DNA of 64,000 nt from an uncultured Alphaproteobacteria bacterium (GCA_963791955.1 CAWBUO010000005.1:72467-136466), one strand, 5' to 3'; shown: positions 20,289 through 60,737, counted from the first letter of the stretch. Notes: a model not told the origin generated them from the letters alone. Numbers and translations: made by a program.

Positions 20289-20335
20289 TCTGCGCCCGCT
20301 GACGCCACCAACCGGGCCTATTGAGGACGCGACGC

Positions 20336-25856: not shown

Positions 25857-25954
25857 CAGGCCCGCCCTCCATGCTTGAGGCTCTGTGCCGGCAATCCAGC
25901 ACAACCCTCGACATTATGCATGCCGAGGACAGGCCGCCGATCACTCAGCGAACA

Positions 25955-32952: not shown

Positions 32953-32987
32953 GATGGTTTGATCAATGCCGTCTGATGAACCCGTCG

Positions 32988-34034: not shown

Positions 34035-34219
34035 GGATCGACCCTTGATAGATGTTTTTGGTTGGCAGACGGACCTGACTGCTTTTCCGTAACCGTGCAA
34101 AAAAAATAGGCTAGCGCAATTGGGCCCGGGTGTCCGCTTCACCCCCTTGAAAACAGACATTAGGCCTTTCGAAGTTTTACAATGAAAGAGGCTGCCGACT
34201 TGAGGCGGCCTTTGATCGA

Positions 34220-40931: not shown

Positions 40932-40977
40932 CAGAATGTTCTTCCAGTGTTGTTCTTCCGGCGCATTGGGGCCTTGA

Positions 40978-41955: not shown

Positions 41956-41978
41956 GAGCAATAAGGGGAGTGTAAGAA

Positions 41979-43058: not shown

Positions 43059-43098
43059 GTATCGCAAACTTTGGGGCTCTCCTAAATCCTGAACAGAC

Positions 43099-44652: not shown

Positions 44653-46022
44653 AGGGGATTGGCTTCCTCGTACGCACGTGCGGCCCGCAGGACGAGGTCG
44701 TCGCGGTACATGGCGCCGACAATTTGAAGCCCGATTGGTCGTCCGTCGGCGGTGAAGCCGCAGGGAACACTAACGGCCGGCTGAAGCGTGAGGTTGAACG
44801 GATAAGAAAACGGAGTCCAGGCCGCAAAGTCGTCTTCTTCGACCTCGGGTGGCGCACGTCGGTTGGCCGGAAACGCCGGAACCGCGGTTGTGGGGAGCAA
44901 TAGAAGATCCCAACGCTCGTGAAAGAGTTGCATGGTTTGGCCCAAGGTAACACGCTTGTTCTGCGCGGTAAGGTAATCCATTAGCGATATGGAGCGCCCT
45001 TTGCGAACAAAATCGCCAAGCCCGGGATCGAGTAGTGCGAGTTTGTCGTCGGGCAAACCGCCAAGCGCATTCGCGACACCGACAAACCAGTGGGTGTTGA
45101 AAATTGGTGTCGTGTCGCCGATCCCAGGATCGGCAAGTTCAACATGGGCACCGAGAGTTTCAAAGATTTTAGCGGCCACATCAACCGCGTGTGCTACCTC
45201 CAGATTCAGCTTGGCAAATCCAAGATCTGGACAGTACGCGATCCTGAGTCCATTGACTGGTTCCTCGATTGCCGTGTGATAGTTGAAAGTGTTTGCGGGC
45301 AATGAAAGCCAATCGCGGGGATCGGGTTTGGTTATGACATTCATCATCAAAGCAAGATCGCTGACCCGCCGTGCTAAAGGCCCGGTAGTAGCGAGCGTTC
45401 CGATCGGGTTGGGTGGATAGGCCGGTACCCTGCCGAAAGTCGGCTTCAATCCGCAGAGGTTGGTGAAAGAAGCGGGATTGCGGATCGAACCACCGCCATC
45501 GGTGCAAAGCGCCAGTGTTCCCATGCCGGAAGCCAAGGCTGCAGCGGCGCCTCCGCTCGATCCGCCGGGTGTCAGTTCCGGGTTCCAGGGATTGCGCGTA
45601 ATGCCGGCAAGCGGACTGTCAGTCGCTCCCTTCCAGCCGAATTCGGCGGTGTTTGTCTTTCCGATGAGGACTGCGCCGGCCTCCCGCAGCCGTGCAACGC
45701 CCGGCGAATCCTCATTCCACGGTTGGTTGGGGTTGATAAGGCGGGAACCGCGTAAAGTTGGCCAACCCTTGGTTAGGAGCAAATCCTTGATTGACGTGGG
45801 CACCCCGTCGATCGGGCTTAGTGGCTTGCCGGCCCGCCACCGTTGTTCTGAGGCACGGGCATCCTCCCGAGCTGCATCGGCATCGACAAGACGGAAGGCA
45901 TTGAGCACTGCGTCATGTGCTTCGATCGCTCGCAGCGCCCCTTCGGTAGCTTCGACCGGCGAGAAAGTGCCAACGGCAAATCCCTGCGTGAGTTCAGCAA
46001 CAGATAGAAATTCGATGTTCAC
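44622..46022 (-). CDS. Amidase (amidase-signature family)
   Basis: GGSSGGAAAALASGMGTLALCTDGGGSIRNPASF. Confidence 0.9.
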   Translation of the reverse strand: MNIEFLSVAELTQGFAVGTFSPVEATEGALRAIEAHDAVLNAFRLVDADAAREDARASEQRWRAGKPLSPIDGVPTSIKDLLLTKGWPTLRGSRLINPNQPWNEDSPGVARLREAGAVLIGKTNTAEFGWKGATDSPLAGITRNPWNPELTPGGSSGGAAAALASGMGTLALCTDGGGSIRNPASFTNLCGLKPTFGRVPAYPPNPIGTLATTGPLARRVSDLALMMNVITKPDPRDWLSLPANTFNYHTAIEEPVNGLRIAYCPDLGFAKLNLEVAHAVDVAAKIFETLGAHVELADPGIGDTTPIFNTHWFVGVANALGGLPDDKLALLDPGLGDFVRKGRSISLMDYLTAQNKRVTLGQTMQLFHERWDLLLLPTTAVPAFPANRRAPPEVEEDDFAAWTPFSYPFNLTLQPAVSVPCGFTADGRPIGLQIVGAMYRDDLVLRAARAYEEANPLYDRHPIGAA

Positions 46023-46490
46023 AACTTTATCCTTGCGCCTGCTCTCTGCTGTTGCGCACAGTCTGCTGGTGTTTCAACTTGGTAAGAAGTTGATCTTACT
46101 AAGCGAATACTAGTCCTGTCCGCCCGCGGGTCGGACGTGCGAGACTGCCGCGGCCGGTATTGACTGATCTTTTGTATATCTGCCTTTGTCGTAGCGGCTA
46201 CGATCTGCCGGATGAGTAGTTAAGAGTCTTCAAAAGGTTTTGGACCGAAGACATCGTTTCGGACCACGGCCGGACGTGACAGTGAGCTAATTCGGGCGGA
46301 GCGAACTGTAAACTGCGTTCGTACGTCGTGATTGACTGTGTTGCGGCTGCTCCGAACATTGACCCCTTTCGGCGTCCAACCGTGACAACAGTCGGAGTCA
46401 CATCTCCGACGACGGTTCAGATGCTCGAGGACGTGAGGAGGTCAAACTTGTGCGCCGATTGGGGGGCAAACGGCGCGCCGATTTACACCA

Positions 46491-47570
46491 TCAGCGCGGC
46501 TCGCGGGCAACGATCATTTTTGGATCAACAAGCTTGCCCTTTTCAATCACGACCTGATTGTCGAGCGTGACTGAACAATCACGGAGCGGCACATCGTAAT
46601 GTCCGCGCGTCGATCGCTTGCCGCCACCTTGCGTGTTCGGTCCGGTCGAGAATAAAAAATTCCCCGGAAAGACGCGCGCTGCAGCCCGATTCCGCTCTGG
46701 GTCATCGCCGTTGAGAGCCATCCCGTACCACCGGGCCTGAGGATTTATTCCCCACCCCAAGTGGGAGATGGCGTAAGGGTCCTGATCGCCGTCGCTGTTT
46801 TTTCCGTCTTCGAGCCAATCGCGCATGAGCTTGGCGTCGAGGCCGCCATCGATATTGACGATATGGCCCTCACGCACTTCAAGCGTCACGCGGTCGGTCA
46901 CATAACGGCAGTAGGGGAGAATGATGATATCCCCGGGAGCAAACACGACCCTGCCATTGGCGCTGCCTTCATTAGGGAAGGTGTGGATGTGGCCGGCGCC
47001 CCAGTGATCGAAATGCCCCTTTTCGTCCGCAAAACCCCATTGGGTCATCACTGGATATTCGCCACACTCATAGCTGAGGTCGGTGCCGGCTTCGCTTGTC
47101 ACTCGAACTTTTCGCGTTCGCCCATAAATACCCTCGGCATACTTCATCGCGTCCTTAAGTCCTTTTGGCGATAGAAGCTGGTCGAGATCATCCGGAGCGT
47201 CGATGATCATAAGTACGCGTGTGCCGCCATCCATCACTTCCTTGAGCCATTTGGTGAACAGCGGTACGTGGAAAATGACAATCAGGTCTGCTTCCTTTAC
47301 GGCTGCAAGCGTGCCTTTGCACTGGCCGATCGTAGGAACTCCGACCTTAGTCCATCCAGGAATGGAGTTTACGCACATTTCATAGATGTCGGCTCCAAGC
47401 TCGTCGGCCGCACCGAACGCGGACTGAATGTACTCCCGCCGCGTGCCGAGGTCGCTCACGATTGCGATAGTCTCGCCGCGTTGCACCTTCGACATTTCGA
47501 ATTGCTTCCGATAGAGCGAGGTAAGGCGTCCCGGATTGAGCTCCTGAACCCGTATCGATGAGTGCTGCAT
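46491..47570 (-). CDS. nicX: NicX-like 2,5-dihydroxypyridine 5,6-dioxygenase (M29 aminopeptidase-fold), paralog 1
   Basis: PYAISHLGWGI and GNFLFSTGPNTQGGGKRSTRGHYDVPLRDC. As I recall it, P. putida NicX has GISHIGWGL and GNFLFSTGPNTEVGGKRKTPCHLDIPLRNC. Confidence 0.75.
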   Translation of the reverse strand: MQHSSIRVQELNPGRLTSLYRKQFEMSKVQRGETIAIVSDLGTRREYIQSAFGAADELGADIYEMCVNSIPGWTKVGVPTIGQCKGTLAAVKEADLIVIFHVPLFTKWLKEVMDGGTRVLMIIDAPDDLDQLLSPKGLKDAMKYAEGIYGRTRKVRVTSEAGTDLSYECGEYPVMTQWGFADEKGHFDHWGAGHIHTFPNEGSANGRVVFAPGDIIILPYCRYVTDRVTLEVREGHIVNIDGGLDAKLMRDWLEDGKNSDGDQDPYAISHLGWGINPQARWYGMALNGDDPERNRAAARVFPGNFLFSTGPNTQGGGKRSTRGHYDVPLRDCSVTLDNQVVIEKGKLVDPKMIVAREPR

Positions 47571-47706: not shown

Positions 47707-48510
47707 ATGTTTCCCGAAGACTATCCGCTGCAAGAGCCCTTCTCGGATCAAGCTCGGCTATATCACGCCGAGGTCATGCGGCGCGGTGCTTCGATTATTG
47801 GTGAGGAACTGCGGTATGGATCCGACCCCTACCAAAGCATGTGCGTTTTTCGTGCGGCCCAGCCAAATGGCGGGGTGTTGGCATTCTTTCACGGGGGCGG
47901 TTGGACCAACGGCTATAAAGAGTGGATGGCGTTCATTGCGCCGTGTTTGACCAACGCTGGAATTACCTTTGCGACGGTTGGTTATCGTCTTGCTCCCGGT
48001 CATCTCTTTCCATCGGGCTTTGACGATGCTTGCGCAGGTGTGGGTCGGCTCGCCGACAGCGCGGCGCAGCTCGCCGGCGGTCAACACCGTCTGTTTGTCG
48101 GGGGCCACTCAGCCGGCGGTCATTATGCGGCGCTCATGGCGCTGACTCAGCCAACTTTGAATATTCGAGGATGTCTTCCGATATCCGGTGTCTACGATTT
48201 CGGGCCGCAATCCGGGCTGTCTACCCGCCCGCGCTTCCTTGGCGCGCCGGAACTCAAGCACGAGGTTGCTGCTAGTCCGATTGAGCATGTTGGTGAAAAT
48301 CCTTGTCCGTTCCTGATCGCCTACGGCAGCGAGGATTTTCCACACCTTATGCGGCAAGCGGAGCGTTTCGCTGACAAACTTGCGGCCGCCGGCGGTGATG
48401 TCCAACGTCTCGTCCTTAATGGCTGTAACCACTTCACCGCCAGCTACGCGGCGGGCGACCCGGACGGTCCGTGGGCATCAAAGGCGATCGAGTGGATCAA
48501 GCAGCATTAA
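47707..48510 (+). CDS. Alpha/beta hydrolase (Abhydrolase_3 / arylformamidase-esterase type)
   Basis: FFHGGGWTNG oxyanion motif and nucleophile elbow GHSAGGH. ATG 47707 is preferred over TTG 47692. Confidence 0.75.
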   Translation: MFPEDYPLQEPFSDQARLYHAEVMRRGASIIGEELRYGSDPYQSMCVFRAAQPNGGVLAFFHGGGWTNGYKEWMAFIAPCLTNAGITFATVGYRLAPGHLFPSGFDDACAGVGRLADSAAQLAGGQHRLFVGGHSAGGHYAALMALTQPTLNIRGCLPISGVYDFGPQSGLSTRPRFLGAPELKHEVAASPIEHVGENPCPFLIAYGSEDFPHLMRQAERFADKLAAAGGDVQRLVLNGCNHFTASYAAGDPDGPWASKAIEWIKQH

Positions 48511-48546: not shown

Positions 48547-49275
48547 TTAGCAGCTCGGACCCAGCTCGCGCGTGCCGGGATAATATGTTCTTGCGAAGGC
48601 CGGCCGTTGTTGCAAGCGCGCGAACCAATCGATGACATGAGGCAAATCGGCCCAGAGATGGGTTAGATCGAGATCCTGCATCCTCACCACACTCGGCATG
48701 ATGCTTATGTCGGCGAGCGTGAACATGTCGTTGGCAAGCCACTGTGTTTGGCTAAGCGATCGCTCCATTCTCTCAAGCGTTTGTCGCAGCCGATCTAGCG
48801 CCGCGTCGATCTCGTCTTTTGAAAACCCGGTTCGCCCCATCTTCAGATAGAAGTGCTTTCGTAAGGGAAGCCGCTCCACGTAAGCGCGGAATTGCTCGTC
48901 TGTCATACCGGACCAGATAGGTACGAAGAACGAATTGAAAGACGGGTACCGGATCGATGTTGTCGGTACCTCGTCAATGTACTGGCGCCATGCCCGCATG
49001 TGCGCGAGTTCGACTGGATTGATCGGACGCAGCGGATGCTCTGGGAAAACATCGTCTATGTATTCGTTGATCACCGACGAATCGCCGATCACGTTGCCGT
49101 TGTGAACTAACGTGGGCACGACACCGTTCGGATTGAGTTTGAGGTACCAATCGGAGAGATGATCGTTTCGGGCGAAGAAGATAATGCGGTCCGTCCAGGG
49201 TAGGTCTTTTTCGATCAGCGCCATACGCACTTTTTGACTGCACGTTGAAACCGGTGAGTTATAAAGTTCGATCAT
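48547..49275 (-). CDS. Glutathione S-transferase family protein
   Basis: MIELYNSPVSTCSQKVRMAL...NPNGVVPTLVHNGNVIGDSSVINEYI (thioredoxin-like GSH site); last gene of the hydroxylase operon. Confidence 0.8.
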   Translation of the reverse strand: MIELYNSPVSTCSQKVRMALIEKDLPWTDRIIFFARNDHLSDWYLKLNPNGVVPTLVHNGNVIGDSSVINEYIDDVFPEHPLRPINPVELAHMRAWRQYIDEVPTTSIRYPSFNSFFVPIWSGMTDEQFRAYVERLPLRKHFYLKMGRTGFSKDEIDAALDRLRQTLERMERSLSQTQWLANDMFTLADISIMPSVVRMQDLDLTHLWADLPHVIDWFARLQQRPAFARTYYPGTRELGPSC

Positions 49276-49337
49276 GGCCTGCGCTGTAACGGGTGTTGAG
49301 TGCAAACGCGCGTTTAGATTACGCGTGTCGCCTACAT

Positions 49338-51656
49338 TCAGCTCATAGGAGCCTTCGGCTGGCCGGTTTCCAGCATCGCGGTAAGGATCCGCTCAGGTGT
49401 CAGCGGCAGCCGGCGCAATCTGATTCCGGTGGCAGCGGTAACGCCGTTAGCGATAGCGGGAGCAACCGAGCAGATTGGGATCTCACCAATTCCCTTGGCA
49501 CCGAACGGACCGTCCGGTTCCGGATCTTCTATCAATAGCGGATGGATCTGATGCGGAACGTCGAGGGTCGTCGCGATCTTGTAGTCCATCAGGCTAGGAT
49601 TGGCGATCCGGGGGCCGTCCCACACCATTTCTTCAAACAACGCGAATCCCAATCCTTGGACAAAGCCGCCCTGAATTTGACCTTCGACCGACATCGGATT
49701 AATGGCCTTGCCGACATCACAAGCCGACCATGCTTCCAGCACCGTGGTCTTGCCGGTTGCTTCGTCGATTTCCACGTCGCAAACAACCGTATTGAATGAG
49801 AAAACGCCGATCTGCGGGAACGGTAGGCCGCTGGCAATCGTACGTTTCGGATCGATTGTCGGCTTGTTGTAGATGAGGCTTTCCGCGCCGATGATCGGCC
49901 CGCCGGCGGCCCAGTGTGCGCGGAGGGAAACATCCTGAAACGTGAGTTCCTTTTGCGGTATGCCGACTATACCGACGCGCCCGCCTTGGCGTAATTCCAG
50001 ATCAGCAACGCCACATTCCAGCATATCGGCAGCATGTTCTTTGATTTTGTGCGCGACCTCGTTGGCCGCGCCGACAACCGCACGCCCGGTCATGTAGGTG
50101 ACGCGACTTGCGGTCGTGCCCCAGTTGAACGGTGAGCCATCGGTGTCAGGGCTTGCGAGCGCAACATTGGCGACCGGAATTTGGAGCGCCTCGGCGCAAA
50201 TCTGCGGCAGCACCGTATCCGAGCCCTGACCGATATCAACGGCACCGGTATTGAGCACGACCGTGCCGTCCTCCAGCAGGCGGATGATTGCGCCAGTCGC
50301 GAGTAGTCCGCAGATATGCGCCGTTGAGGCAACGCCAAGCGCGCGCCGTCGACCCGGAGCGACCGTCAGGCTTTGGCGTTCATCCCAACGTGAGGCGCGA
50401 CGGGCGCTGTGCAGGGATTTGATGAATCCGTCGGAATGGATCGCGCCGCCGCCGACCCATTGGTCGCCAGCGCGCACGGCGTTTTTCTCCCGGAGGTCAA
50501 TTGGATCAATGCCAAGCCTTGCCGCGATCTCGTCGATTTGGACCTCGGTCGCAAAGGTCACCTGCGGATTGCCGAAACCGCGGAAAGCGCCGAAGCGAAG
50601 CTTGTTGGTGTAAAAAAGCCGTCCCAATGACCGGAAATTGGCGATACGGTACGGTCCGCGCGCCATCCATAGGGAAAAGCCCATAACGCCGGGGCTATCG
50701 TCCCCGTATGCACCGCAATCGATGACCGCCTCAACCTCGCGGGCAACTAGCGTGCCGTCCCTGAGCGCACCGGTCTTGGCGCGAATTTTATAGGGGTGTC
50801 TCAGGCGTACGAGCTCGAAGTCCTCTTCGCGGCTAAGCACCATTTTAACTGGTTTGCCGGTCGCGAGGGCGAGCGCTGCGGCCATGCCTTGAACGTGCAT
50901 TTCCATCTTGTTGCCGAAGCCGCCGCCAACCCGCGGCGTGACGCAACGCACCCTAGACATCGGCAAGCCGAGCGCGTCACAAACATTTGCCTGAACCCGA
51001 AACACCGACTGGTTTGCCGACCAGATCGTAACCCGACCGGCAGCATCGATCTCTGCCAAAGCCCCACACGGCTCGATGGCTACATGGGCTTGCGCCTGGG
51101 TCTCAAATTCGTTTTCCACGATGACGTCACAGGTTGCCCAAGCGGCATCCACGTCTCCCTCAGAAAATCGGCATTCCCACGCCAGGTTGCCGCCACACTC
51201 GGTTTCAAAAATGCGGAAGTTCTTAGTGTTGTCGTCGTGGACTAGGGGCGCGCCGGGAGCCATCGCTTCCTCTGGGCTGAGTACGGCGGAGAGCTCCTCG
51301 TAGGTCACATCTATGAGCTGCGCGGCACGCCGCGCCGTCGCTTCATCTTCAGCCGCCACTAGACATACGGCTTCGCCAACGAAACGCACCTTCTGTTTGG
51401 CGAGAACGCATTCGTCCTTGATGAAGGGGCCAAATTTCCCATTTGCGACATCGTTTCCTGTGAGAACGCAGGCGACGCCTGGAACCGCAAGTGCAGCCGA
51501 GATGTCGTATGACAAGATCCGGGCGTGCGCATAGGGGCTTTTGAGGATGGCTCCGTGCAGCATTCCAGGTCGGTAAATGTCGGCGATGTAAGTCGCACGC
51601 CCGCTGGTTTTCTCAGCGGCGTCAAGACGCGGGAGATTTCGCCCGACCTCTTTCAT
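49338..51656 (-). CDS. Xanthine dehydrogenase-family molybdopterin-binding large subunit
   Basis: 772 aa with the GAFRGFGNPQ motif (XDH type). The CODH-type AYRCSFR and AYRGAGR motifs are absent. Confidence 0.9.
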   Translation of the reverse strand: MKEVGRNLPRLDAAEKTSGRATYIADIYRPGMLHGAILKSPYAHARILSYDISAALAVPGVACVLTGNDVANGKFGPFIKDECVLAKQKVRFVGEAVCLVAAEDEATARRAAQLIDVTYEELSAVLSPEEAMAPGAPLVHDDNTKNFRIFETECGGNLAWECRFSEGDVDAAWATCDVIVENEFETQAQAHVAIEPCGALAEIDAAGRVTIWSANQSVFRVQANVCDALGLPMSRVRCVTPRVGGGFGNKMEMHVQGMAAALALATGKPVKMVLSREEDFELVRLRHPYKIRAKTGALRDGTLVAREVEAVIDCGAYGDDSPGVMGFSLWMARGPYRIANFRSLGRLFYTNKLRFGAFRGFGNPQVTFATEVQIDEIAARLGIDPIDLREKNAVRAGDQWVGGGAIHSDGFIKSLHSARRASRWDERQSLTVAPGRRRALGVASTAHICGLLATGAIIRLLEDGTVVLNTGAVDIGQGSDTVLPQICAEALQIPVANVALASPDTDGSPFNWGTTASRVTYMTGRAVVGAANEVAHKIKEHAADMLECGVADLELRQGGRVGIVGIPQKELTFQDVSLRAHWAAGGPIIGAESLIYNKPTIDPKRTIASGLPFPQIGVFSFNTVVCDVEIDEATGKTTVLEAWSACDVGKAINPMSVEGQIQGGFVQGLGFALFEEMVWDGPRIANPSLMDYKIATTLDVPHQIHPLLIEDPEPDGPFGAKGIGEIPICSVAPAIANGVTAATGIRLRRLPLTPERILTAMLETGQPKAPMS

Positions 51657-52129
51657 TGGGCGACCTCACCGCCAGCGCGACAGACTGCTTCAACAATTTT
51701 GATGTAGCCTGAGCAGCGGCACAGGTTTCCGGATAGAGCTGCCCTTGCCTCATCGGCACTCGGATGCGGATTTTGGCGCAGTAGCGAGTGTGCGGAAACA
51801 AGTACTCCCGAGGTGCAAAAGCCACACTGCACTGCGCCATTCTCGGTCAGAGCCTGCTGCAGGGGAGCGAGTTCGCGGGTCTGAGCCAAACCTTCAACCG
51901 TCGTGATCGGCCGATCCACCAGGTTCACCGCTAGCGACAGGCAGCTGCGGACAGGCTGGTCGGCCACAAGAACTGTACACGCCCCGCAAACGCCCTGGTT
52001 GCAGCCCCGCTTCGCGCCGGTTAAGGCAAGCTCATCACGTAAAACGGTGAGTAGTGTCGTGGTTGGCATCGCACGGACACTGCGTCGGCGGCCATTGATG
52101 GTGAGATTCACAAGTTGTTCGCCGTTCAC
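51653..52129 (-). CDS. (2Fe-2S)-binding small subunit of the molybdenum hydroxylase
   Basis: CNQGVCGACTV and CGFCTSG...CRCSGY clusters; 4-nt overlaps on both sides. Confidence 0.9.
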   Translation of the reverse strand: MNGEQLVNLTINGRRRSVRAMPTTTLLTVLRDELALTGAKRGCNQGVCGACTVLVADQPVRSCLSLAVNLVDRPITTVEGLAQTRELAPLQQALTENGAVQCGFCTSGVLVSAHSLLRQNPHPSADEARAALSGNLCRCSGYIKIVEAVCRAGGEVAQ

Positions 52130-52983
52130 GGCTCGTCTCCGATAGCGGCCCGAGCGCGCCGGATGGTCTTTGCAAGCAGCCGGGGAATGACTCGCCGCCG
52201 GTAGTCGGCGCTGGCACGAACATCATCGACTGGATCGCATGCCGCCGCCAGGATGTCGCCAGCCGCTTCGATTGCCGCATCTTCGAGACGACTGCCTTCA
52301 AGTAATTTTTCGGCTTCGCTCCGCCGCACCGGACCCGGGGCACATGCCCCAATCGCCACGCGCGCGACACGGCATACGTCATGTTCCATCGCCAAAATCA
52401 CCGCGACCGAAACGACAGCGAAATCGCCTGCTGTGCGTTCGAGTTTTTCAAACACACCGACGGTTCCTTCGGGCGCAGGAGGAACCACGACACGGATAAT
52501 AATATCAGCAGGAGCCAGCACGGTCGTGTACCAGTCGACGATCAGCTCGTTGATCGGCACAGTTCGGGGACCGCTTGCTGAAGCCACCTCGATTGCCGCA
52601 TCGATCGCCGCCAGAGCCGGCAAATAATCCGCTGCTGGATCGGCGAAGGCGAGAGAGCCGCCGATTGTTCCCATATTGCGGACCGGTACATTGGCGATCT
52701 TTACCGCGGCCGCGGGCAACACTCTTTGGCCGCTGCGAAAGACTCTCGAGCGCGATGTTTCAACATGACGGGTCATTGCGCCGATCTGCACGGATCCATC
52801 AGGCGAAACCGTTATTCCGGTAAGGTCGTGGAGGTCAGCGAGACTGACCAGGCCAGACGGCTCTACTAAGCCCGCGTTCATCATAGCAACAAGTGTCGCG
52901 CCACCCGCTAGGCAGCGCGCGCCATCATGTTGAGTGAGAAACGACACGGCTTCGGCAACACTTGTTGGTCGGTAAAAATCCAT
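52126..52983 (-). CDS. FAD-binding medium subunit of the molybdenum hydroxylase (CoxM-like)
   Basis: MDFYRPTSVAEAVSFL...RCLAGGATLVAMMNAGL (FAD_binding_5 pattern). Confidence 0.85.
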   Translation of the reverse strand: MDFYRPTSVAEAVSFLTQHDGARCLAGGATLVAMMNAGLVEPSGLVSLADLHDLTGITVSPDGSVQIGAMTRHVETSRSRVFRSGQRVLPAAAVKIANVPVRNMGTIGGSLAFADPAADYLPALAAIDAAIEVASASGPRTVPINELIVDWYTTVLAPADIIIRVVVPPAPEGTVGVFEKLERTAGDFAVVSVAVILAMEHDVCRVARVAIGACAPGPVRRSEAEKLLEGSRLEDAAIEAAGDILAAACDPVDDVRASADYRRRVIPRLLAKTIRRARAAIGDEP

Positions 52984-52989
52984 CGGCGT

Positions 52990-53451
52990 TCACGTTACGG
53001 GGGAAGGAGCTTCGACGCGCGCCTTGAATGCCGCGGCGAAATCGCGACCCAGACTTTCAGCCTTTTTCTTCATCACGCCGAGGCCAAATTTCCCGAGCCG
53101 ACCGACGACCGAAACCTCGGAAGCATAACTGACTTCTGTTTCGTTCGGACTTCGCTCTACGAGGCGCAAGATATTCTCGGCCGAGATCGAGCTGGCACGG
53201 CTGCCTTCTTCCCCACGCGTGCGCGACCGCAATTCTTCGGGTGGCTTCTGCGCAGTCAGTTCTACGTCGACGTTAAAGTCCGCTTTGATGACCCCCAATT
53301 GCACCCGGACCTTGGCCTTGTAAAGCGTCGGGCTCGATACTGTGACGCCCTGGCATCCCGGGACACAAGGCGCGACAACGGCTGGATCGATTATTGCAGC
53401 CCAGACTCGCTCGCGCGGCGCGGCGACGATGAATCGGTCCTCAATGCGCAT
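52990..53451 (-). CDS. CoxG-like SRPBCC protein (putative fourth hydroxylase component)
   Basis: MRIEDRFIVAAPRERVWAAIIDPAVVAPCVPGCQGV...VVGRLGKFGLGVMKKKAESL. Confidence 0.8.
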   Translation of the reverse strand: MRIEDRFIVAAPRERVWAAIIDPAVVAPCVPGCQGVTVSSPTLYKAKVRVQLGVIKADFNVDVELTAQKPPEELRSRTRGEEGSRASSISAENILRLVERSPNETEVSYASEVSVVGRLGKFGLGVMKKKAESLGRDFAAAFKARVEAPSPVT

Positions 53452-53461
53452 GGTTAGGCCC

Positions 53462-54544
53462 TTACCGAGCCTGGCGCGGGACTATCATCGCGGGATCCGT
53501 TAGGCGGCCCGCTGCGATGATCGTTTTGCCGTCAAGTTCGACGGTACAGCCGCGCATCGGTACGTCATAATGGCCACGAGTCGAACGATTGCCGCCTCCT
53601 TGAGTGTTCGGACCAGTGGAAAAAAGGAAGTTGCCCGGGAATACCCGGGCCGCGGCCCGATTGCGCTCAGGCTGGTCGCCATGCAAACCCATCCAATACC
53701 AGCGAGCCTGAGGATTCATGCCCCAGCCGAGATGAGACAGCGCGTACGGATCGCGGTCATCTTCGCTGGCTTTTCCATCTTCGAGCCACTCGCGCATCAG
53801 ATTGGCATCGAGACCGCCATCGAGATCGACAATGTGCCCGTCGCGAATTTTGAGTCGGATCGGATCGGTAACGTAGCGGCAATAGGGGAGAATGATCATG
53901 TCCCCGGGGGAGATCGTGACTGTCCCCTGTGCCGAGCCTTCATTCGGGAAAGTGTGAATGTGACCGGCACCCCAAAGGTCGAAATGGCCAGGTTCGTCTG
54001 CGTAGCCCCACTGCGTCATAACTGGATATTCGCCGCACTCATACGCCAAATCCGTGCCGTCAGAACGAGTGACACGCACGCGGCGTGTTTTGCGATAAAG
54101 CGACTCAGCGTACTTCATAGCCTCCTTCAAGCCGGGCGGCGACATCAGTTCCTCAAGATCATCGGGCGCATCATGGACCATCAGCACACGCGTGCCGCTC
54201 TCCATCACCTTCTTCAGCCACGATGTGAAAAGCGGAATGTGGAAGATCAGCACCATGTCGGCCGCACAGAGTGCTTCAAGCGTTCCTTTGCAGCGGCCAA
54301 TTGTCGGAACACCCACCTTCGTCCAGGAGGGGGTCGTGCTCACTGTCATTTCATAAATATCCGCGCCAAGTTCGTTTGCCGCGACGAAGGCTGCTTCAAC
54401 GTATTCCTGCCTCGTTGCGAGATCGCTTACGACCGCGATCGTCTCACCCTTCGTCACTCGGCAGAGCTCGAGTTGTTGTCGAAACAATCCTGGCAACTGA
54501 GCAGGATTAAGTTCTTGGGGCCGCCGTGCCGCTTCGACGCGCAT
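53462..54544 (-). CDS. nicX: NicX-like 2,5-dihydroxypyridine 5,6-dioxygenase, paralog 2 (first gene of the hydroxylase operon)
   Basis: PYALSHLGWGM and GNFLFSTGPNTQGGGNRSTRGHYDVPMRGC. Long identical runs with paralog 1 (GADIYEM, TKVGVPTIG, ECGEYPVMTQWG, WGAGHIHTFPNEGSA). Start MRVEAARRPQELNP aligns with the paralog 1 N-terminus. Confidence 0.75.
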   Translation of the reverse strand: MRVEAARRPQELNPAQLPGLFRQQLELCRVTKGETIAVVSDLATRQEYVEAAFVAANELGADIYEMTVSTTPSWTKVGVPTIGRCKGTLEALCAADMVLIFHIPLFTSWLKKVMESGTRVLMVHDAPDDLEELMSPPGLKEAMKYAESLYRKTRRVRVTRSDGTDLAYECGEYPVMTQWGYADEPGHFDLWGAGHIHTFPNEGSAQGTVTISPGDMIILPYCRYVTDPIRLKIRDGHIVDLDGGLDANLMREWLEDGKASEDDRDPYALSHLGWGMNPQARWYWMGLHGDQPERNRAAARVFPGNFLFSTGPNTQGGGNRSTRGHYDVPMRGCTVELDGKTIIAAGRLTDPAMIVPRQAR

Positions 54545-54599
54545 AGCCGAAATCCTTTCCACGCAAGATACTTCAATGTACAAATCGCTCGGAACGGGT

Positions 54600-54631
54600 G
54601 TCAATAGCGAGGGTCACTCTCTTTTTGATTT
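54600..54631 (+). promoter_or_regulatory. Operator-like motif, copy 1 (nicX2 / tetR divergent intergenic region)
   Basis: GTCAATAGCGAGGGTCACTCTCTTTTTGATTT is 30/32 identical to 60738-60769. It contains the imperfect dyad TCAA..GAGGGT-N-ACTCTC..TTGA. Confidence 0.45.
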
Positions 54632-54642
54632 GGCGGAAAGGA

Positions 54643-55269
54643 ATGGGAGGCGTGGTACAGGTCAAGAAAGCTGAGGTCCGAGACGCTATTCTCAAAAGCG
54701 CGTTTCGGCTGTTCAAGCGCAAAGGTTACATCAATACGACGACCGCGCAGATCGCCGCGGGCGCGAAGGTTTCCGAGTTTAACCTTTACATTTATTTTGG
54801 CTCAAAGTTCGAGATTTTGTTCGCGATTTGCGATCCGTGGATGCGCCAGCGTGTTCAACGTCTTGAGGATCGGCTGGGGGCAGAGACCGACCCCAGGCGG
54901 CGGTTGCAAATCATTCTCGCCACGCTGTGGCGAGAAATGCCGACCGATGACAATGGTTTTCCCAACAGCCTCATGCAAGCGCTCGCGACTACGGCCCGCC
55001 GCGAGGGCTACCGACCTGACTTGCTGCGTTGGATCGAAGAACGTGTCGAAGCCTTGATTTTGGAGTCTCTGCCCGTGTCGAGACGACGGCAGCTCGCTCG
55101 GGGGGGGCTCGCCCATCTTCTGATGATGGCGCAGGACGGCTTCGTTCTTAACCACCATCTGAATCCGGATAGCATCTGCCCGGACGCCACAGTCGACCTT
55201 GTCTGCGACCTTCTGCTCGGCAATCACGTGCAGGGGCAACTGAGTCCCAAAAGCGCTTCCATGGTTTGA
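54643..55269 (+). CDS. TetR/AcrR family transcriptional regulator (divergent from the nicX2 operon)
   Basis: RDAILKSAFRLFKRKGYINTTTAQIAAGAKVSEFNLYIYFGSKFEIL. Confidence 0.8.
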   Translation: MGGVVQVKKAEVRDAILKSAFRLFKRKGYINTTTAQIAAGAKVSEFNLYIYFGSKFEILFAICDPWMRQRVQRLEDRLGAETDPRRRLQIILATLWREMPTDDNGFPNSLMQALATTARREGYRPDLLRWIEERVEALILESLPVSRRRQLARGGLAHLLMMAQDGFVLNHHLNPDSICPDATVDLVCDLLLGNHVQGQLSPKSASMV

Positions 55270-55303: not shown

Positions 55304-56047
55304 TCAAGGCGCGGATCGAAAGGTTGCGGCCAGTTCTTTCTCCAAGCCCTTAGGATCTTCCCGCAGACGCCGTTCCAGTTCGTACGAATAGTCATGGAGC
55401 CAGATATCTTCTTCGCCGGCGACGACCGCGTCCAGGGCGCGTTCCGCTACCTCGGTTGGCGACGTCTTCACTCCCTGGAATGGTCCACTCATTACGGTGT
55501 CGACGGCCCAGGGCAGCACTAGAGCCACTTTTGTGCCCTGCGCCATCAATTCCGCGCGCACACCCTCCGATAGTCGCAGCAGTGCGGCCTTGCTGGCGCA
55601 ATACGAGCCAAGGTTCGGCAATGTCACTTTGCCGAGAATTGAAGCGACATTGATGATGGCGCTTCCGCCGAATTGCCGATGCGCCGCGAGTATCGGGGCG
55701 AACGCGCGGCACATGGCGAGCGTACCAAGATAATTCGTTTCAATCTCGCGACGAGCTGATGCCATTGAAGGCGCGGCTATAAAAGGGGCCCGGAGATTCA
55801 CGCCCGCATTGTTGATAAGGAGTTGAACATCAGAGGCGGATTTCGCTGCCCCCGCGGTCGATGCCTCGTCAGTAATGTCAAGATCCACAGGAACGATGCG
55901 CGAATCTGCGACCGCGTCATCATTTCTTCCTGGCAGATCCGCCGCATAAACGCGGCGAGCGCCACGTTTTATTAGAGCGGCGACAAAGCATCTCCCGATG
56001 CCGCCGTGCGCGCCAGTAACGAAGGCGGTTGTCCCTGCGATGTCCAT
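55304..56047 (-). CDS. SDR family oxidoreductase
   Basis: TGAHGGIG, NNAG and YCASK. The internal start MDIAGTTAFVTG was chosen because the long upstream extension overlaps the ATPase gene. Confidence 0.85.
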   Translation of the reverse strand: MDIAGTTAFVTGAHGGIGRCFVAALIKRGARRVYAADLPGRNDDAVADSRIVPVDLDITDEASTAGAAKSASDVQLLINNAGVNLRAPFIAAPSMASARREIETNYLGTLAMCRAFAPILAAHRQFGGSAIINVASILGKVTLPNLGSYCASKAALLRLSEGVRAELMAQGTKVALVLPWAVDTVMSGPFQGVKTSPTEVAERALDAVVAGEEDIWLHDYSYELERRLREDPKGLEKELAATFRSAP

Positions 56048-56060
56048 CTTTCTTGGCCCC

Positions 56061-56780
56061 TCAAATTCCCATATAGGCGGAACGCACCCTCGGATCCTGT
56101 GATAGTGCGTCAGCGGCGTCAGAAAGAACAATGCGACCGTTTTCCATGACATGTCCTGTTGCAGCGAGCGCCAGCGCCTGCGGGACATTTTGCTCGGCCA
56201 TAAGAATGGTGAACCCACGTGCGGCTAAGTCCGCGACGGTGCGATAAATGGTCGAGCACATCGCTGGCGCCAGACCCAGTGTCGGTTCGTCGAGCAGCAG
56301 CAATTCCGGCCGCGACATCAGCCCGCGTGCAATTGCCAACATTTGCTGCTCACCACCGGACAAAGTACCAGCCGACTGTCGAGAACGCTCCGCGAGTCGC
56401 GGGAACAGTGCATACATTTCCTCCAGACGCTCCGATAAGCCGCTCCGCCCACGCCGCGTGATGCCGCCGAGGCGCAAATTTTCCGCTACGTTCAATCCGG
56501 GAAATACCAGCCGTCCTTCGGGCACAAGTGCGATGCCGCGTTCGACCCGTTCGTTTGGAGCGAGCCTTGTTATGTCGGTTCCCGCCACCACGATGCGTCC
56601 GGCAATCGGCGGCAAAAGGCCGGCGATGCTGCGCATCAGAGTTGTCTTTCCGGCGCCGTTAGCGCCCAGAAGCGCGGTGATACGACCTTTCGGGGCATCC
56701 AGCGAAACACCGTGTAGAATGCGGACGTGTCCGTATCCTGCTTCAAGGTTACTGATTTCAAGCATCGCCATGACTGCCAA
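56061..56780 (-). CDS. ABC transporter ATP-binding protein (LivF-like)
   Basis: GANGAGKTT, LSGGEQQ, LLLLDEPT. The exact start is uncertain (three Met codons within the first 6 codons). Confidence 0.85.
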   Translation of the reverse strand: MAVMAMLEISNLEAGYGHVRILHGVSLDAPKGRITALLGANGAGKTTLMRSIAGLLPPIAGRIVVAGTDITRLAPNERVERGIALVPEGRLVFPGLNVAENLRLGGITRRGRSGLSERLEEMYALFPRLAERSRQSAGTLSGGEQQMLAIARGLMSRPELLLLDEPTLGLAPAMCSTIYRTVADLAARGFTILMAEQNVPQALALAATGHVMENGRIVLSDAADALSQDPRVRSAYMGI

Positions 56781-57486
56781 AATAGACGCGCGATACCTCC
56801 GCCTCCTCGGCGATGATCTGGGGCGGGCCCTCTGCTATTCTTTGCCCGAGATGCAGCACTACAATTCGATCAGAAAGTGCCATCAAGGCGCGCATCACAT
56901 GTTCGATAACGATCAGCGTTAGCCCAAGATCACTCCGGAGCATGCGCACGATTTCAACCATTTCGACGACTTCGAGCGGCGTGAGCCCGGCCATCACCTC
57001 GTCGAGCATTACGAGTTTGGCGCCGGTCGCTATAGCGCGGGCAATCTCTAATCGTTTCTGTCCTGAAAGCGTAAGCTCGCTTGCCAAATCACCGGCACGA
57101 TCGAGCAAATTGACAATTCTCAGCGCATCGCGCGCGGCCGCATCGACCTGACGCGCTGCGCTGAGCGAGCGTGCGCCGAAGCGTGCGGCGGTAGCGGCGT
57201 TCTCCAAGACGGTAAGGCCTAGGAAAGGTCGGACGACCTGAAAGGTCCTGGCAATCCCGCGGCGCGCGATTTGATCGGGGCGCAGGCCGAGCAATGACTC
57301 CCCCTGCCAAAAGATCTCGCCGGCATTGGGACGCGTGTTGCCTGCGATCACGGCGAATAGGGTGGTCTTACCAGCGCCGTTTGCGCCCATCAGCCCGACG
57401 ATTTCGGCAGGTCTAACTTGGAAGCTCACGTCTTCGAGCGCAGTGACGCCGCCGAACCGCTTCGAAATGTTGCGCAGTTCCAACAT
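56758..57486 (-). CDS. ABC transporter ATP-binding protein (LivG-like)
   Basis: GANGAGKTT, LSGQKRLEIARA, LVMLDE. Confidence 0.85.
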   Translation of the reverse strand: MLELRNISKRFGGVTALEDVSFQVRPAEIVGLMGANGAGKTTLFAVIAGNTRPNAGEIFWQGESLLGLRPDQIARRGIARTFQVVRPFLGLTVLENAATAARFGARSLSAARQVDAAARDALRIVNLLDRAGDLASELTLSGQKRLEIARAIATGAKLVMLDEVMAGLTPLEVVEMVEIVRMLRSDLGLTLIVIEHVMRALMALSDRIVVLHLGQRIAEGPPQIIAEEAEVSRVYFGSHGDA

Positions 57487-57489
57487 CGG

Positions 57490-58386
57490 TCAGCGTGCTC
57501 GCCTGATTAGGCCGCTTAGACCTTCGGGAAGGAAACGAACGAAGATTAACAATAGAATGCCGAGGATCAGCATGTAACCTTGTGGTGCGACATCCCAGAG
57601 TAGTTCGGACAATCCGGTGAGGAGAGCCGCTCCGAGCACTGGCCCGCGGAGGTCGTCCGAGCCACCGATGATGGTCATCGCTATCATCGAAAACGAAATC
57701 ATGGGGTCGAAAGCGGTGCTTGGTTCGAAATAAGTGGCTCGGAGCGCCATGACGCCGCCAACCGATCCCGGGATGGCAGCCGAGATTACGAATGCGGTGA
57801 GCTTATAGCGGGCGGCGGGAACGCCGAGGGTTTCCGCGGCTTCCTCGTCTTCCCGCAGTGCGCGTAACCCATGCCCGAGCCTGTTCGACCGCACGGCGGC
57901 GCCAACGAGTGTGGCGATCAAGGCTAAGCCCAGCAGGACATAGAAGATTACGATCGGGTCGGGCGCGCCAAGGATTAGCCGGCTAGCGTGTCCGAGCGCG
58001 GCTTCGATTGCGATTAACGTGTATTTGACCAACTCCGCGATACCGAATGTCAGAATGACAAAATATGGCCCGCGAACTCGTAACACCGGCAGGCCGATCA
58101 CGAATGCAAAAGCAGCGGCGAGGAGTGCGGCCAGCATTAACGCGAGCGGCAGAGGAACTACGTTCCAGGTTATTACTACCAAATACGCGCCGAGCCCGTA
58201 GAACACCACGTGGCCAAGCGAAATGTATCCGGAGAGCGCAGACAGAACTGCCCAGCTTTGCGCCAGTGCGATCGCCGCCATCAACGATATGCTGAACCCG
58301 ATCCAGTAATCGGTGGTAAAGGCCCCAGTCACTGCAACTGCGGCAAGGCCAGCCAGGATGAGGCCGAGGTCGAGCGACAGCCTCAT
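57490..58386 (-). CDS. Branched-chain amino acid-type ABC permease (LivM-like)
   Basis: Hydrophobic; LSGYISLGHVVFYGLGAY; 4-nt overlap with the upstream permease gene. Confidence 0.85.
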   Translation of the reverse strand: MRLSLDLGLILAGLAAVAVTGAFTTDYWIGFSISLMAAIALAQSWAVLSALSGYISLGHVVFYGLGAYLVVITWNVVPLPLALMLAALLAAAFAFVIGLPVLRVRGPYFVILTFGIAELVKYTLIAIEAALGHASRLILGAPDPIVIFYVLLGLALIATLVGAAVRSNRLGHGLRALREDEEAAETLGVPAARYKLTAFVISAAIPGSVGGVMALRATYFEPSTAFDPMISFSMIAMTIIGGSDDLRGPVLGAALLTGLSELLWDVAPQGYMLILGILLLIFVRFLPEGLSGLIRRAR

Positions 58387-59276
58387 CGGGCGATCTTGCC
58401 ACGTCCAAAAAATCCTTGAGGGCGAAACAGCAGAACGCCCACGAATACGCCGTAGAGCAGGATGGAGTGCCAGGTCGACGACGTCAGTGCAACGCCGTAG
58501 GTTTCAATCAGACCGAGGACTATCGCAGCAACGATGCCTCCGCCAAAACTGCCTAGGCCGCCCATAATCACCACGACAAAGGCTGCAATGGTGAAGGGAA
58601 ATCCCATGAACGGGGTGACCTGATCGCTCATTGAGATGAGCGTTCCGGCAACGGCAGCGGACCCAAAGCCGACGACAAAGCTCGCAGTCTGCACCATGTC
58701 GATATCAACACCCACTATGGCGGCGGCCTCACGATCCTCGATTAAACCGCGAATGGCGAGGCCCCACGGGTGCCAGCGTAGGAACAGGAACACTGTGGTG
58801 ATCAGCGCAAGCGCGATCACCGCAGCTGCGAGCCGGTTTTCGGTTAGGGACACGTTGCCGACGCTGATCACTCGGTCGAGGTACTGATAGCCACGCGGCG
58901 TCGACGTAAACAGAAGGGCGACCCCGTTCTGCAAAATGATCGACAAGCCAAAGAACATCAACAACGAGTTTGATTCCAGCTGAGCGGTTCGCCGTCGCTC
59001 GAGCAGCATTCGGCGGAACAGACCCCTGTAGGCGGCTATGCCCAAGAAACTCGCCACCGCTGCGGTGAGAAAAAGTGACAGCAGCGGCGACAGACCCCAC
59101 AGCGTGAAGAGCCAGTAACCCCCGTAGCCACCGAGCATGACAAGATCGCCATGCGCGACGTTCAGCAAGCGCATGGTGCCGTAAACGAGGTTCAAGCCCA
59201 GCGCGACCAGCGCAAAGTTCGCAGCCGCTATTAACGCCGCAGCGGCAAGTTGGCCCGACAGCAGCGTGTTAATCAC
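58383..59276 (-). CDS. Branched-chain amino acid-type ABC permease (LivH-like)
   Basis: GTG 59276 gives VINTLLSGQLAAAALIAAANFALVALGLNLVYGTMRLLNVAHG. The 39-codon upstream extension is not protein-like. Confidence 0.8.
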   Translation of the reverse strand: MINTLLSGQLAAAALIAAANFALVALGLNLVYGTMRLLNVAHGDLVMLGGYGGYWLFTLWGLSPLLSLFLTAAVASFLGIAAYRGLFRRMLLERRRTAQLESNSLLMFFGLSIILQNGVALLFTSTPRGYQYLDRVISVGNVSLTENRLAAAVIALALITTVFLFLRWHPWGLAIRGLIEDREAAAIVGVDIDMVQTASFVVGFGSAAVAGTLISMSDQVTPFMGFPFTIAAFVVVIMGGLGSFGGGIVAAIVLGLIETYGVALTSSTWHSILLYGVFVGVLLFRPQGFFGRGKIAR

Positions 59277-59451
59277 GCGCGGATGGCCTCCATGCCGGGC
59301 GTTGCGGTGTGGTACAACATGCAAGCGGTCCAATTTGAAACCCCATGCTCGGATCAGCATGAGATGCAAAGTGTTCAACGAGCCGCACGACAAACGCGGC
59401 CTAACAGCTCGCGTACGTTAAAGTAGTAACTCTACCGAGAGGAGGTGTAGG

Positions 59452-60636: not shown

Positions 60637-60737
60637 CGGTAAGCTCCTCCTCGGTTGACTATTCACTCTTCCGGTGCCTTAGTTCTGCTCAGCGCGTGAG
60701 TGGCCTCTAATAACTCTACTAATCGCATTTGTTCAAT

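Follow-up and report, generated by a model that had tools for sequence, protein, structure and literature searches.

One of the closest described counterparts of the locus studied here is the four-component 3-hydroxypyridine dehydrogenase HpdA of Ensifer adhaerens HP1 (WGS record VHKK01), an enzyme that the initial annotation of our locus had mentioned and that does exist in the literature (bioRxiv 10.1101/2020.01.08.898148). HpdA converts 3-hydroxypyridine stoichiometrically to 2,5-dihydroxypyridine (2,5-DHP), requires a separate SRPBCC protein, and depends for its activity on adjacent PEP-utilising and pyruvate-phosphate-dikinase (PPDK) genes; the 3hpd clusters have diverse layouts across Alpha-, Beta- and Gammaproteobacteria, including Variovorax (bioRxiv 10.1101/2020.01.08.898148). 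The picolinate dehydrogenase PicA and the 3-succinoylpyridine dehydrogenase SpmABC are likewise molybdenum (Mo) hydroxylases with an SRPBCC module, acting at pyridine C6. Their module is fused to the FeS subunit (bioRxiv 10.1101/2020.01.08.898148), whereas the SRPBCC protein of our locus is separate. A NicX-type enzyme can open the rings of their products only after a further monooxygenase or decarboxylase reaction. NicX converts 2,5-DHP to N-formylmaleamate. The 2,5-DHP 5,6-dioxygenases NicX, Hpo and NdpE (PDB 7CN3; PMC7910607) share fold, family and His-Ser-His-Asp iron ligands with the NicX proteins reported below, but are partnered by NicC, NicD, NicF and NicE, in contrast to the Mo hydroxylase and HSL-type hydrolase found here.

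We analysed a 64,000-nucleotide stretch of DNA (the window) from an uncultured Alphaproteobacteria bacterium (GCA_963791955.1, CAWBUO010000005.1:72467-136466). The ORF list contains six tightly packed minus-strand genes, which encode, from first to last, a NicX-like protein (NicX2; ORF 53462-54604, true start ATG 54544, hence 53462..54544, 360 aa), a CoxG/SRPBCC protein (52990..53451, 153 aa), an FAD-binding medium subunit (52126..52983, 285 aa), a small subunit with two [2Fe-2S] clusters (51653..52129, 158 aa), an XDH-type Moco large subunit (49338..51656, 772 aa) and a GST (ORF 48547-49305, true start ATG 49275, hence 48547..49275, 242 aa, with GST_N and GST_C domains). A TetR-family regulator (54643..55269, plus strand, alternative start 54598; PF00440, 5e-12) diverges from them. 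This co-oriented arrangement, led by NicX and closed by the GST, is as first annotated, and Pfam and NCBIfam searches back the domain assignments. The two 4-nt overlaps noted at that stage can be read directly in the sequence, as GTGA (52129-52126) between the FAD and FeS genes and as ATGA (51656-51653) between the FeS and Moco genes; the remaining gaps are 6, 10 and 62 nt. The span originally given, 48547-54631, takes in the whole operon, but its end lies past NicX2, within the 98-bp NicX2-TetR intergenic region. This region holds a predicted sigma-70-like promoter on the minus strand (54575..54604; TTGACA, 18 nt, TACATT), the sole promoter-like match between 46300 and 56400, scoring 10/12 against the consensus. 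Because the upstream TTG (54604) belongs to the -35 box of this match, and because gene calls on identical contigs give a protein of 360 aa, we place the NicX2 start at ATG 54544. Judged from the sequence, the operon joining a Mo ring-hydroxylating enzyme to a pyridine-ring-opening dioxygenase is real.

The Pfam domains agree with the earlier assignment of four of these proteins to a hydroxylase of the XDH family whose SRPBCC component is a protein of its own. The large subunit comprises an alpha/beta-hammerhead and two Moco-binding domains (PF01315, 5.6e-32; PF02738, 1.3e-80; PF20256, 8.6e-73); the medium subunit carries FAD_binding_5 and CO_deh_flav_C domains (PF00941, 6e-43; PF03450, 1.6e-23); the small subunit matches PF01799 (5.7e-29) and PF00111, with both [2Fe-2S] Cys motifs visible in the translation. 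The locus thus has the complete large-, medium- and small-subunit (L-M-S) domain set of XDH-type aerobic Mo hydroxylases, together with the FRGFG and GxGE motifs. The latter occur in the large subunit as GAFRGFGNPQ (residues 356-365), invariant in 19 homologs, and GIGE (residues 722-725); in line with XDH structures, we take the first to be the XDH-type motif and the glutamate of the second to be the catalytic Glu. CoxG (PF06240 COXG, 6.3e-20) is encoded as a separate ORF beside the Moco, FeS and FAD subunits, and inspection of its 153-aa translation revealed no hydrophobic or membrane stretch. Values of dN/dS for the Moco subunit, CoxG and both NicX paralogs of the window lie between 0.02 and 0.08.

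The presence of a CoxG gene, partial scores against CO-dehydrogenase models and a match of the large subunit to CoxL of PDB 8uem (1.3e-99) raise the question of whether the enzyme could instead be a CO dehydrogenase or a general aldehyde oxidoreductase that neighbours NicX by coincidence. We consider this very improbable. GAFRGFGNPQ stands where the active-site loop of form I (VAYRCSFR) or form II (AYRGAGR) CO dehydrogenase would lie, neither loop nor the CO-dehydrogenase Cys loop was found in the large subunit, no CoxDEF-type genes are present in the window, and the NCBIfam scores of 350 (TIGR02416) and 339 bits fall far under their cutoffs of 991 and 950. The motif-based reading of the initial annotation, XDH type and not CO dehydrogenase, therefore holds, and the coincidence is further contradicted by NicX synteny in 51 genomes. 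Among structures and NCBIfam models, the three core subunits score best against 4-hydroxybenzoyl-CoA reductase (4-HBCR; PDB 1RM6), whose alpha subunit is the best PDB match of the large subunit (1.1e-110), and E. coli-type XdhABC, always well under the equivalog cutoffs. The FAD subunit of 4-HBCR has a Cys-rich insert for a [4Fe-4S] cluster; that of the window differs in being of ordinary length, with no obvious insert of this kind. The cluster also contains no CoA ligase. Since the NCBIfam search of the large subunit returned no equivalog at cutoff and there is no close characterised relative, homology does not reveal its substrate.

The same four-protein architecture, an XDH-family Moco, two-[2Fe-2S] and FAD enzyme with a separate SRPBCC protein beside a NicX-type dioxygenase, is shared with HpdA, as is the predicted logic of hydroxylation next to the ring nitrogen followed by direct cleavage, with no flavin monooxygenase. 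Given the diversity of 3hpd layouts, already recorded in Variovorax, the locus might be simply an ortholog of the Ensifer HpdA1A2A3A4 system. The differences make this a long shot. The order is SRPBCC-FAD-FeS-Moco in the window versus Moco-FeS-SRPBCC-FAD in HpdA. HpdA3 exceeds the window protein in length and has a predicted signal peptide, a membrane segment (216-233) and a C-terminal signal-like region (138-233), none of which is present in the window's SRPBCC protein. The regulator is TetR here and GntR in 3hpd. PEP-utilising and PPDK genes are absent from the annotated window ORFs, and the 51 syntenic loci leave no room for them. Whereas 3hpd has canonical HpdC, HpdD and HpdE, the window has an HSL-type hydrolase and no canonical NicD, NicF or NicE. 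HpdA subunits are closest to Ndh/Qor, unlike the window large subunit, which scores best against the 4-HBCR and XdhA models, and the NicX clade of the window is a distinct one. This comparison covers gene layout, model scores and the published description of HpdA.

The gene set extends beyond that first annotated, which had missed a conserved hydrolase and a transporter. An Abhydrolase_3 protein of the HSL type, with an HGGG motif (PF07859, 1.8e-22), is encoded at 47707..48510 on the plus strand, and a Liv-type ABC transporter, identified by Pfam as a Peripla_BP_6 binding protein, two permeases and two ATPases, lies at 56061..60666 on the minus strand. Among 71 assessable related loci, 51 have the order NicX-CoxG-FAD-FeS-Moco-alpha/beta hydrolase-ABC transporter; they span Alpha-, Beta- and Gammaproteobacteria and include Variovorax and Ruegeria as well as Rhodospirillales and other MAGs. 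In these 51 loci the hydrolase is directly downstream of the Moco gene. CoxG adjoins the FAD gene, TetR keeps its position and the transporter follows the hydrolase in most orthologous clusters; in the window the transporter has been relocated beyond TetR. NicX and the hydrolase occur together or not at all, both being present in 51 loci and neither in 18, where the hydroxylase and the transporter have no such genes beside them; the two discordant loci reflect positional artefacts. The same gene order in about 50 independent genomes is far beyond chance, which upholds the link between hydroxylase and NicX that had been proposed from the window alone. The window carries a rearranged version of a widespread, uncharacterised cluster, in which NicX has been duplicated. 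Given its recurrence in around 50 other proteobacterial genomes, the gene set probably degrades a common small nitrogen heterocycle.

Searches for canonical pyridine-pathway enzymes were negative. In tblastn against the whole window, NdpF, NdpG and NdpH and Rhizobium NicC, NicD, NicE and NicF gave no match at E <= 1e-3, and no NicD-type deformylase, isochorismatase-type maleamate amidase or Asp/Glu-racemase-type maleate isomerase was found. Equivalents of PicB and PicC are also absent from the window. The initial annotation had seen no NicC-type flavin monooxygenase or decarboxylase, and Pfam searches of the large ORFs and tblastn for NicC gave the same answer. With neither present, the product of the hydroxylase would itself have to be the ring-cleavage substrate. 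These absences make it most improbable that the locus is a nicotinate or picolinate cluster, despite NicX-type genes being typical of nic and pic clusters: NicC, PicB, PicC, NicD, NicE and NicF are all missing, and the hydroxylase differs in type from the NicAB enzyme of nic clusters, for which a canonical Rhizobium cluster served as comparison. Furthermore, conversion of 6-hydroxynicotinate to a para-dihydroxy ring requires decarboxylative hydroxylation.

We favour the reading, at a probability of roughly 0.55, that the window carries a catabolic cluster for a small pyridine-type N-heterocycle, which would be hydroxylated, cleaved by NicX and then deacylated. We infer all of the chemical steps, and the substrate, from the gene content, operon-like packing, synteny, NicX-hydrolase co-occurrence, catalytic-residue retention and purifying selection that we observe. 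The Liv-type transporter would import the compound under TetR control. The CoxG-FAD-[2Fe-2S]2-Moco enzyme would then hydroxylate the ring carbon next to the nitrogen, with water, to give a 5-hydroxy-2-pyridone (2,5-dihydroxypyridine-type) product, for which the simplest substrate would be 3-hydroxypyridine or a close analog. Ring opening by a NicX-family Fe(II) dioxygenase would follow. The Abhydrolase_3 protein, which shows no kinship to NicD or NdpF by tblastn, is a predicted N-formyl or N-acyl amide hydrolase acting after ring cleavage, where it would remove the corresponding group. In the window organism only, an amidase and the GST may carry the product towards maleate or fumarate. Ensifer HpdA, with its separate SRPBCC protein, offers a precedent for the hydroxylation. 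Several observations count against this reading: the large subunit has no curated equivalog at cutoff, the NicX clade is of low identity to proven enzymes and altered at substrate-contact residues (see below), the canonical maleamate-pathway enzymes are missing, the orthologous clusters conserve neither an amidase nor an isomerase, and in 18 related loci the hydroxylase and transporter stand without NicX and hydrolase. In addition, 3-hydroxypyridine has no known abundance that would explain so broad a range of marine, freshwater and soil habitats.

The lead gene of the operon, annotated as NicX-like, does belong to the NicX family (PDB 7CN3, 1.6e-65; PF26233:NicX in the precomputed annotation), but it is not the typical copy. 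That role falls to a second gene outside the span first described, NicX1 (46491..47570, minus strand, 359 aa), which is 71% identical to NicX2 and carries the clade consensus signature CLFMQHHRSQHD, common to 50 of the 57 cluster NicX proteins; NicX2 is a lineage-specific diverged paralog. The Fe(II) ligands His265, Ser302, His318 and Asp320, and Arg293 (P. putida numbering), are kept in NicX1, in NicX2 (as H291, S329, H345 and D347, with R320) and across the clade, and Cys76 and Leu104 are conserved in cluster NicX. The substrate-holding network His105/Glu177/His189 is not kept, reading F/Q/H in NicX1 and the clade and F/Q/L in NicX2. The clade-wide changes are H105F, V175M, E177Q and E308Q, to which NicX2 adds H189L; its F126, Q198, L210 and Q335 replace H105, E177, H189 and E308 of P. 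putida NicX. In the P. putida enzyme, His105, Glu177 and Glu308 hold or guide 2,5-DHP, and the exchanges E177A and H189A leave only 2.7% and 6.9% of the activity, respectively (PMC7910607). The cluster-linked proteins form their own monophyletic clade on a long stem and are 32-39% identical to characterised enzymes, including proven 2,5-DHP dioxygenases. Both window copies are under strong purifying selection (dN/dS 0.020 for NicX2, against a 96% relative, and 0.026 for NicX1). Given these substitutions and the missing maleamate-pathway enzymes, the proposal that 2,5-DHP itself is the cleavage substrate is a tentative one.

A tentative alternative is that the cluster handles a different heterocycle, such as a hydroxypyridine that bears a carboxyl group or another substituent (3-hydroxypicolinate or a vitamin-B6-type ring, for instance), a pyrazinone or a pyrimidine, with the hydrolase removing an acyl group other than formyl and NicX1 and NicX2 taking different rings. 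The altered residues are those named as substrate-holding (PMC7910607), on a long-stem clade; both window paralogs are constrained, the hydrolase does not belong to the NicD type, and neither NicF nor NicE is present. Sister clusters additionally encode an amidohydrolase and a homolog of 2-nitroimidazole nitrohydrolase, and the broad range of environments points to a metabolite that is common in nature. The Peripla_BP_6 family includes binders of aromatic acids, which fits the same view; the PDB matches of the binding protein are weak. Against this, F105 also occurs in the ndpE product of the Sphingobium ndp nicotine-degradation cluster, annotated as a 2,5-DHP dioxygenase, and a Q177-type homolog in Thioclava adjoins an isochorismatase-family (NicF-like) gene, so that Gln at this site is compatible with a maleamate-type route. 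A Gln could also still pair with the lactam N-H/C=O. Nor does the cluster conserve a decarboxylase or any further enzyme that would deal with ring substituents. In its boldest form, which we regard as possible but doubtful, the alternative describes a new and environmentally widespread pathway for an N-heterocycle common in nature, other than 3-hydroxypyridine and nicotinate, with a PEP-independent family of four-protein Mo hydroxylases, a distinct E177Q/E308Q NicX subfamily cleaving some ring different from plain 2,5-DHP and, in this organism, two paralog specificities set by His or Leu at 189.

If the favoured reading of a pyridine-type catabolic cluster is right, the locus would represent a second family of four-protein hydroxylases for pyridine rings, distinct in architecture and linked directly to ring opening by a NicX-type enzyme. 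A 'CO/xanthine dehydrogenase-like' gene set that is common but now annotated only generically would gain a function, and a pyridine-type metabolite would turn out to have a natural flux that has gone unrecognised. The cluster would also provide natural NicX variants for studying substrate selection by this unusual His-Ser-His-Asp iron dioxygenase. Dozens of Proteobacteria from marine, freshwater, groundwater and soil settings carry it, and cultured carriers (Variovorax spp. and Ruegeria lacuscaerulensis) make the hypothesis directly testable.

The GST, originally counted as part of the operon, is a clade-specific accessory gene and not a core component: it is absent from most orthologous clusters and confined to close relatives, apart from a 31-33% homolog that sister clusters carry behind the ABC genes, and its best PDB match is the beta-etherase LigF (4xt0, 4e-27), not a zeta-class isomerase. 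An amidase-signature protein encoded downstream of NicX1 (44622..46022, minus strand; PF01425, 1.6e-93) is a possible maleamate amidase, but its linkage to the cluster is weak; the gene is present on two of three identical-strain contigs, is replaced by an IS21 element on the third, and is absent from the 96% relative. An SDR oxidoreductase gene (55304..56047, minus strand; PF00106, 4.7e-31) at the end of the transporter operon is confined to the window clade, where it occupies the same position in loci L001 and L081-L085.

Six open reading frames (ORFs) running in the same direction occupy the minus strand at ~48.5-54.6 kb in the ORF listing of the window. The first in transcription order encodes the NicX-like protein NicX2 (53462-54544), followed by five genes assigned by Pfam and NCBIfam: a CoxG/SRPBCC protein (52990-53451), an FAD subunit (52126-52983), a 2x[2Fe-2S] subunit (51653-52129), the molybdopterin (Moco) large subunit (49338-51656) and, last, a GST (48547-49275). 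Two junctions are 4-nt overlaps, GTGA and ATGA, and the remaining gaps measure 6, 10 and 62 nt. The ORFs, Pfam and NCBIfam all confirm the arrangement described in the initial annotation, namely six co-oriented genes with 4-nt overlaps and a divergent TetR gene. The 98-bp intergenic region between NicX2 and TetR yielded no inverted-repeat operator. By consensus matching, the sole sigma-70-like promoter found in the region is TTGACA followed, after 18 nt, by TACATT. The longest NicX2 ORF opens at TTG 54604, the first base of this TTGACA -35 box; since the opening TTG belongs to the -35 box, the mechanical ORF call lengthens NicX2 by 20 codons. The true start is ATG 54544, and identical and near-identical contigs likewise have a gene call of 360 aa here.

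The operon sits inside a larger island. An amidase and a second NicX copy, NicX1, lie at 44622-47570 (minus strand), an Abhydrolase_3 hydrolase at 47707-48510 (plus strand), and an SDR gene with a five-gene Liv-type ABC transporter at 55304-60666 (minus strand), beyond TetR. The contig derives from soil-type metagenome assemblies, and among named relatives a Stellaceae MAG is the nearest. The region had no megablast match among PLSDB plasmids. Neither a NicC-type monooxygenase nor a decarboxylase is present in the window, as originally noted and now confirmed by window annotation and by tblastn: canonical NicC, NicD/NdpF, NicE/NdpH and NicF/NdpG, drawn from the Rhizobium nic and Sphingobium ndp clusters, found no match.

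As first proposed, the large subunit is of the xanthine dehydrogenase (XDH) type and not a CO dehydrogenase. The motif GAFRGFGNPQ is invariant across 19 homologs and the CO-dehydrogenase Cys loop is absent. Homologs number in the thousands; no NCBIfam equivalog cutoff is reached, and the protein is most closely related to 4-hydroxybenzoyl-CoA reductase and XdhA-type enzymes.

NicX2 aligns over its full length with Pseudomonas putida NicX (PDB 7CN3; E = 1.6e-65) and carries the precomputed annotation PF26233:NicX; a local Pfam search gave no match, the Pfam copy presumably being older than that model. NicX1 (46491-47570) is 71% identical to NicX2. When mapped onto the residues named in the NicX structure paper (PMC7910607; P. 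putida numbering), the iron ligands His265, Ser302, His318 and Asp320, along with Arg293, Cys76 and Leu104, are all retained. Four positions are substituted (His105 to Phe, Val175 to Met, Glu177 to Gln and Glu308 to Gln), and His189 is Leu in NicX2 but not in NicX1. The P. putida E177A and H189A mutants keep 2.7% and 6.9% residual activity, respectively (PMC7910607). By neighbour joining, the cluster-linked NicX proteins fall into a single long-stem clade. Identity is 66-77% within the clade and 32-39% to P. putida NicX, NdpE and Rhizobium NicX, and 50 of 57 members have the signature F105, M175, Q177, H189, Q308. Between the window and its 96% relative, dN/dS is 0.020 for NicX2 and 0.026 for NicX1, so both are kept by selection; the values for the Moco subunit and CoxG are 0.083 and 0.064.

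Eighty genome loci with large subunits 60-85% identical to that of the window were fetched and searched with all window proteins. The prevailing layout is a divergent TetR gene, then NicX, CoxG, FAD, FeS and Moco genes, an Abhydrolase_3 hydrolase, a binding protein, two permeases and two ATPases. Where the flanks extend far enough, 51 loci have NicX together with the hydrolase and 18 have neither; the two exceptions to this pairing are artefacts of position. The cluster is carried by Variovorax species, Ruegeria lacuscaerulensis, Burkholderiales, Gammaproteobacteria and many Rhodospirillales, Dongiaceae and Hyphomicrobiales MAGs, among others, and cultured strains of Variovorax and Ruegeria allow a direct test. 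Clustering the ORFs of the 80 loci returned no extra conserved family, the output being mostly antisense shadow ORFs. The operon is real and non-random. The proposed direct coupling of an N-heterocycle hydroxylase to NicX-type ring cleavage finds support, and the synteny much strengthens it.

The window lineage (the window, L001 and L081-L085 among the fetched loci) carries a rearranged form, with the hydrolase inverted and out of its usual place, the transporter relocated past TetR, a GST after the Moco gene and a duplication of NicX. The initial annotation placed a NicX-like gene first and a GST last. Both positions hold in the window, but NicX2 is a derived paralog, confined to the window lineage among the loci compared, and the GST, absent from most orthologous clusters, is not a core member; the true conserved partners are the hydrolase and the ABC transporter. 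The 18 loci with the hydroxylase and ABC transporter but no adjacent NicX or hydrolase (L075, L076, L038, L043, L053, L055, L073 and others) are spread across the large-subunit tree, several with CoxG on the other strand. The pattern points either to loss or relocation on several occasions or to a core unit made up of hydroxylase and transporter. On contigs with an identical large subunit, gene calls are truncated or split (L081 7112-8092 and 9531-10001; L083 8935-9531 and 14086-15166), with NicX shortened to 326 aa and FAD to 198 aa, no call for the FeS gene and NicX1 in two pieces; apparently these are frameshift errors from long-read assemblies, not real pseudogenes.

XDH-family enzymes hydroxylate electron-poor ring carbons beside nitrogen. 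Since no monooxygenase or decarboxylase is present, the hydroxylase product would itself have to be the dioxygenase substrate. NicX enzymes break the C5-C6 bond of 5-hydroxy-2-pyridone rings, yielding an N-formyl amide (PMC7910607). The simplest case would be conversion of 3-hydroxypyridine to 2,5-dihydroxypyridine (2,5-DHP), the reaction of HpdA from Ensifer (bioRxiv 10.1101/2020.01.08.898148). The hydrolase, of the HSL/HGGG family and unrelated to NicD by tblastn, would act as a deformylase or deacylase, a role that fits its constant travelling with NicX. We give this route from hydroxylase through NicX to hydrolase, acting on a 3-hydroxypyridine-type substrate, a probability of roughly 0.55. 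Less probable, though possible, is the same scheme with another or a substituted heterocycle as substrate; this reading rests on the altered NicX pocket, the lack of every other canonical maleamate enzyme, the accessory genes of sister clusters and the very wide environmental distribution. The weight of the residue changes is reduced, however, because Phe105 is also found in an annotated 2,5-DHP dioxygenase, the ndpE product of the Sphingobium nicotine-degradation cluster, and a Thioclava homolog with Gln177 adjoins a NicF-like gene. Homarine catabolism, considered because of the cluster's marine distribution, was rejected; the hom operon has neither a Mo enzyme nor NicX.

The closest known system is the 3hpd/HpdA cluster of Ensifer adhaerens HP1, whose hydroxylase likewise consists of four proteins, a free SRPBCC protein among them. 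Judged from its published description, it differs in every testable architectural feature: gene order, regulator type, downstream enzymes and SRPBCC length, the window protein having no membrane segment. The PEP-utilising and PPDK genes essential in 3hpd are missing from the window cluster. HpdA is said to resemble the Ndh/Qor group (bioRxiv 10.1101/2020.01.08.898148), unlike the large subunit described here. Two proxies for 3hpd were discarded, a Halomonas 'plasmid' NicX locus that looks NicAB-like and a Rhizobium locus that is a canonical nic cluster. Literature searches for exactly this gene set found no paper describing it.

The GST has an N-terminal STCSxKVR that looks zeta-like, but its top structural relative is the beta-etherase LigF (4e-27) and TIGR01262 matches its N-terminus only (63 bits against a cutoff of 171); a zeta-class maleyl isomerase was therefore rejected. 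In a sister clade, a GST 31-33% identical, also with STCSxKVR, is located after the transporter, often accompanied by a homolog of 2-nitroimidazole nitrohydrolase (PDB 9azg, 5.7e-36). This 346-aa protein of the guanidino-modifying superfamily (L004 18441-19481; also L005-L007, L072, L030 and L032) often adjoins a GST or an Amidohydro_1 protein. It has no counterpart in the window, and its presence in sister clusters could mean that the substrate is a substituted heterocycle.

Even near-identical strains differ in whether they have the amidase downstream of NicX1. The 96% relative has other genes at this site, and in L082, an otherwise identical contig, an IS21 element (IstB and transposase; 15331-17646) just after NicX1 stands in place of the amidase and sugar-type ABC region. 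This strain-specific replacement indicates that the island is under active rearrangement between strains. Upstream in the window (22730-25904) there are also an integrase fragment, an IS5-like element and an IS110-like transposase.

Two Amidohydro_1 proteins flank the island (39471-46022 and 61143-62657), the first followed by a sugar/BMP-type ABC transporter. An Amidohydro_1 gene 35% identical to the second lies within the orthologous cluster in L030 and L032, and a tie to the pathway is possible. An adjoining cytochrome P450 and VanA-like Rieske oxygenase (31705-34160, minus strand) may form an O-demethylation or aromatic-oxidation module unconnected with the operon. The window also holds a full gene set for coenzyme F420 biosynthesis (9770-15854, 20321-21016 and 28185-28649), comprising a fused CofG/H radical-SAM protein (10865-13300), CofC, CofD and CofE, with a luciferase-like monooxygenase, an F420-dependent NADP oxidoreductase and an F420H2-dependent quinone reductase nearby. 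These genes share the contig with catabolic genes of alphaproteobacterial appearance.
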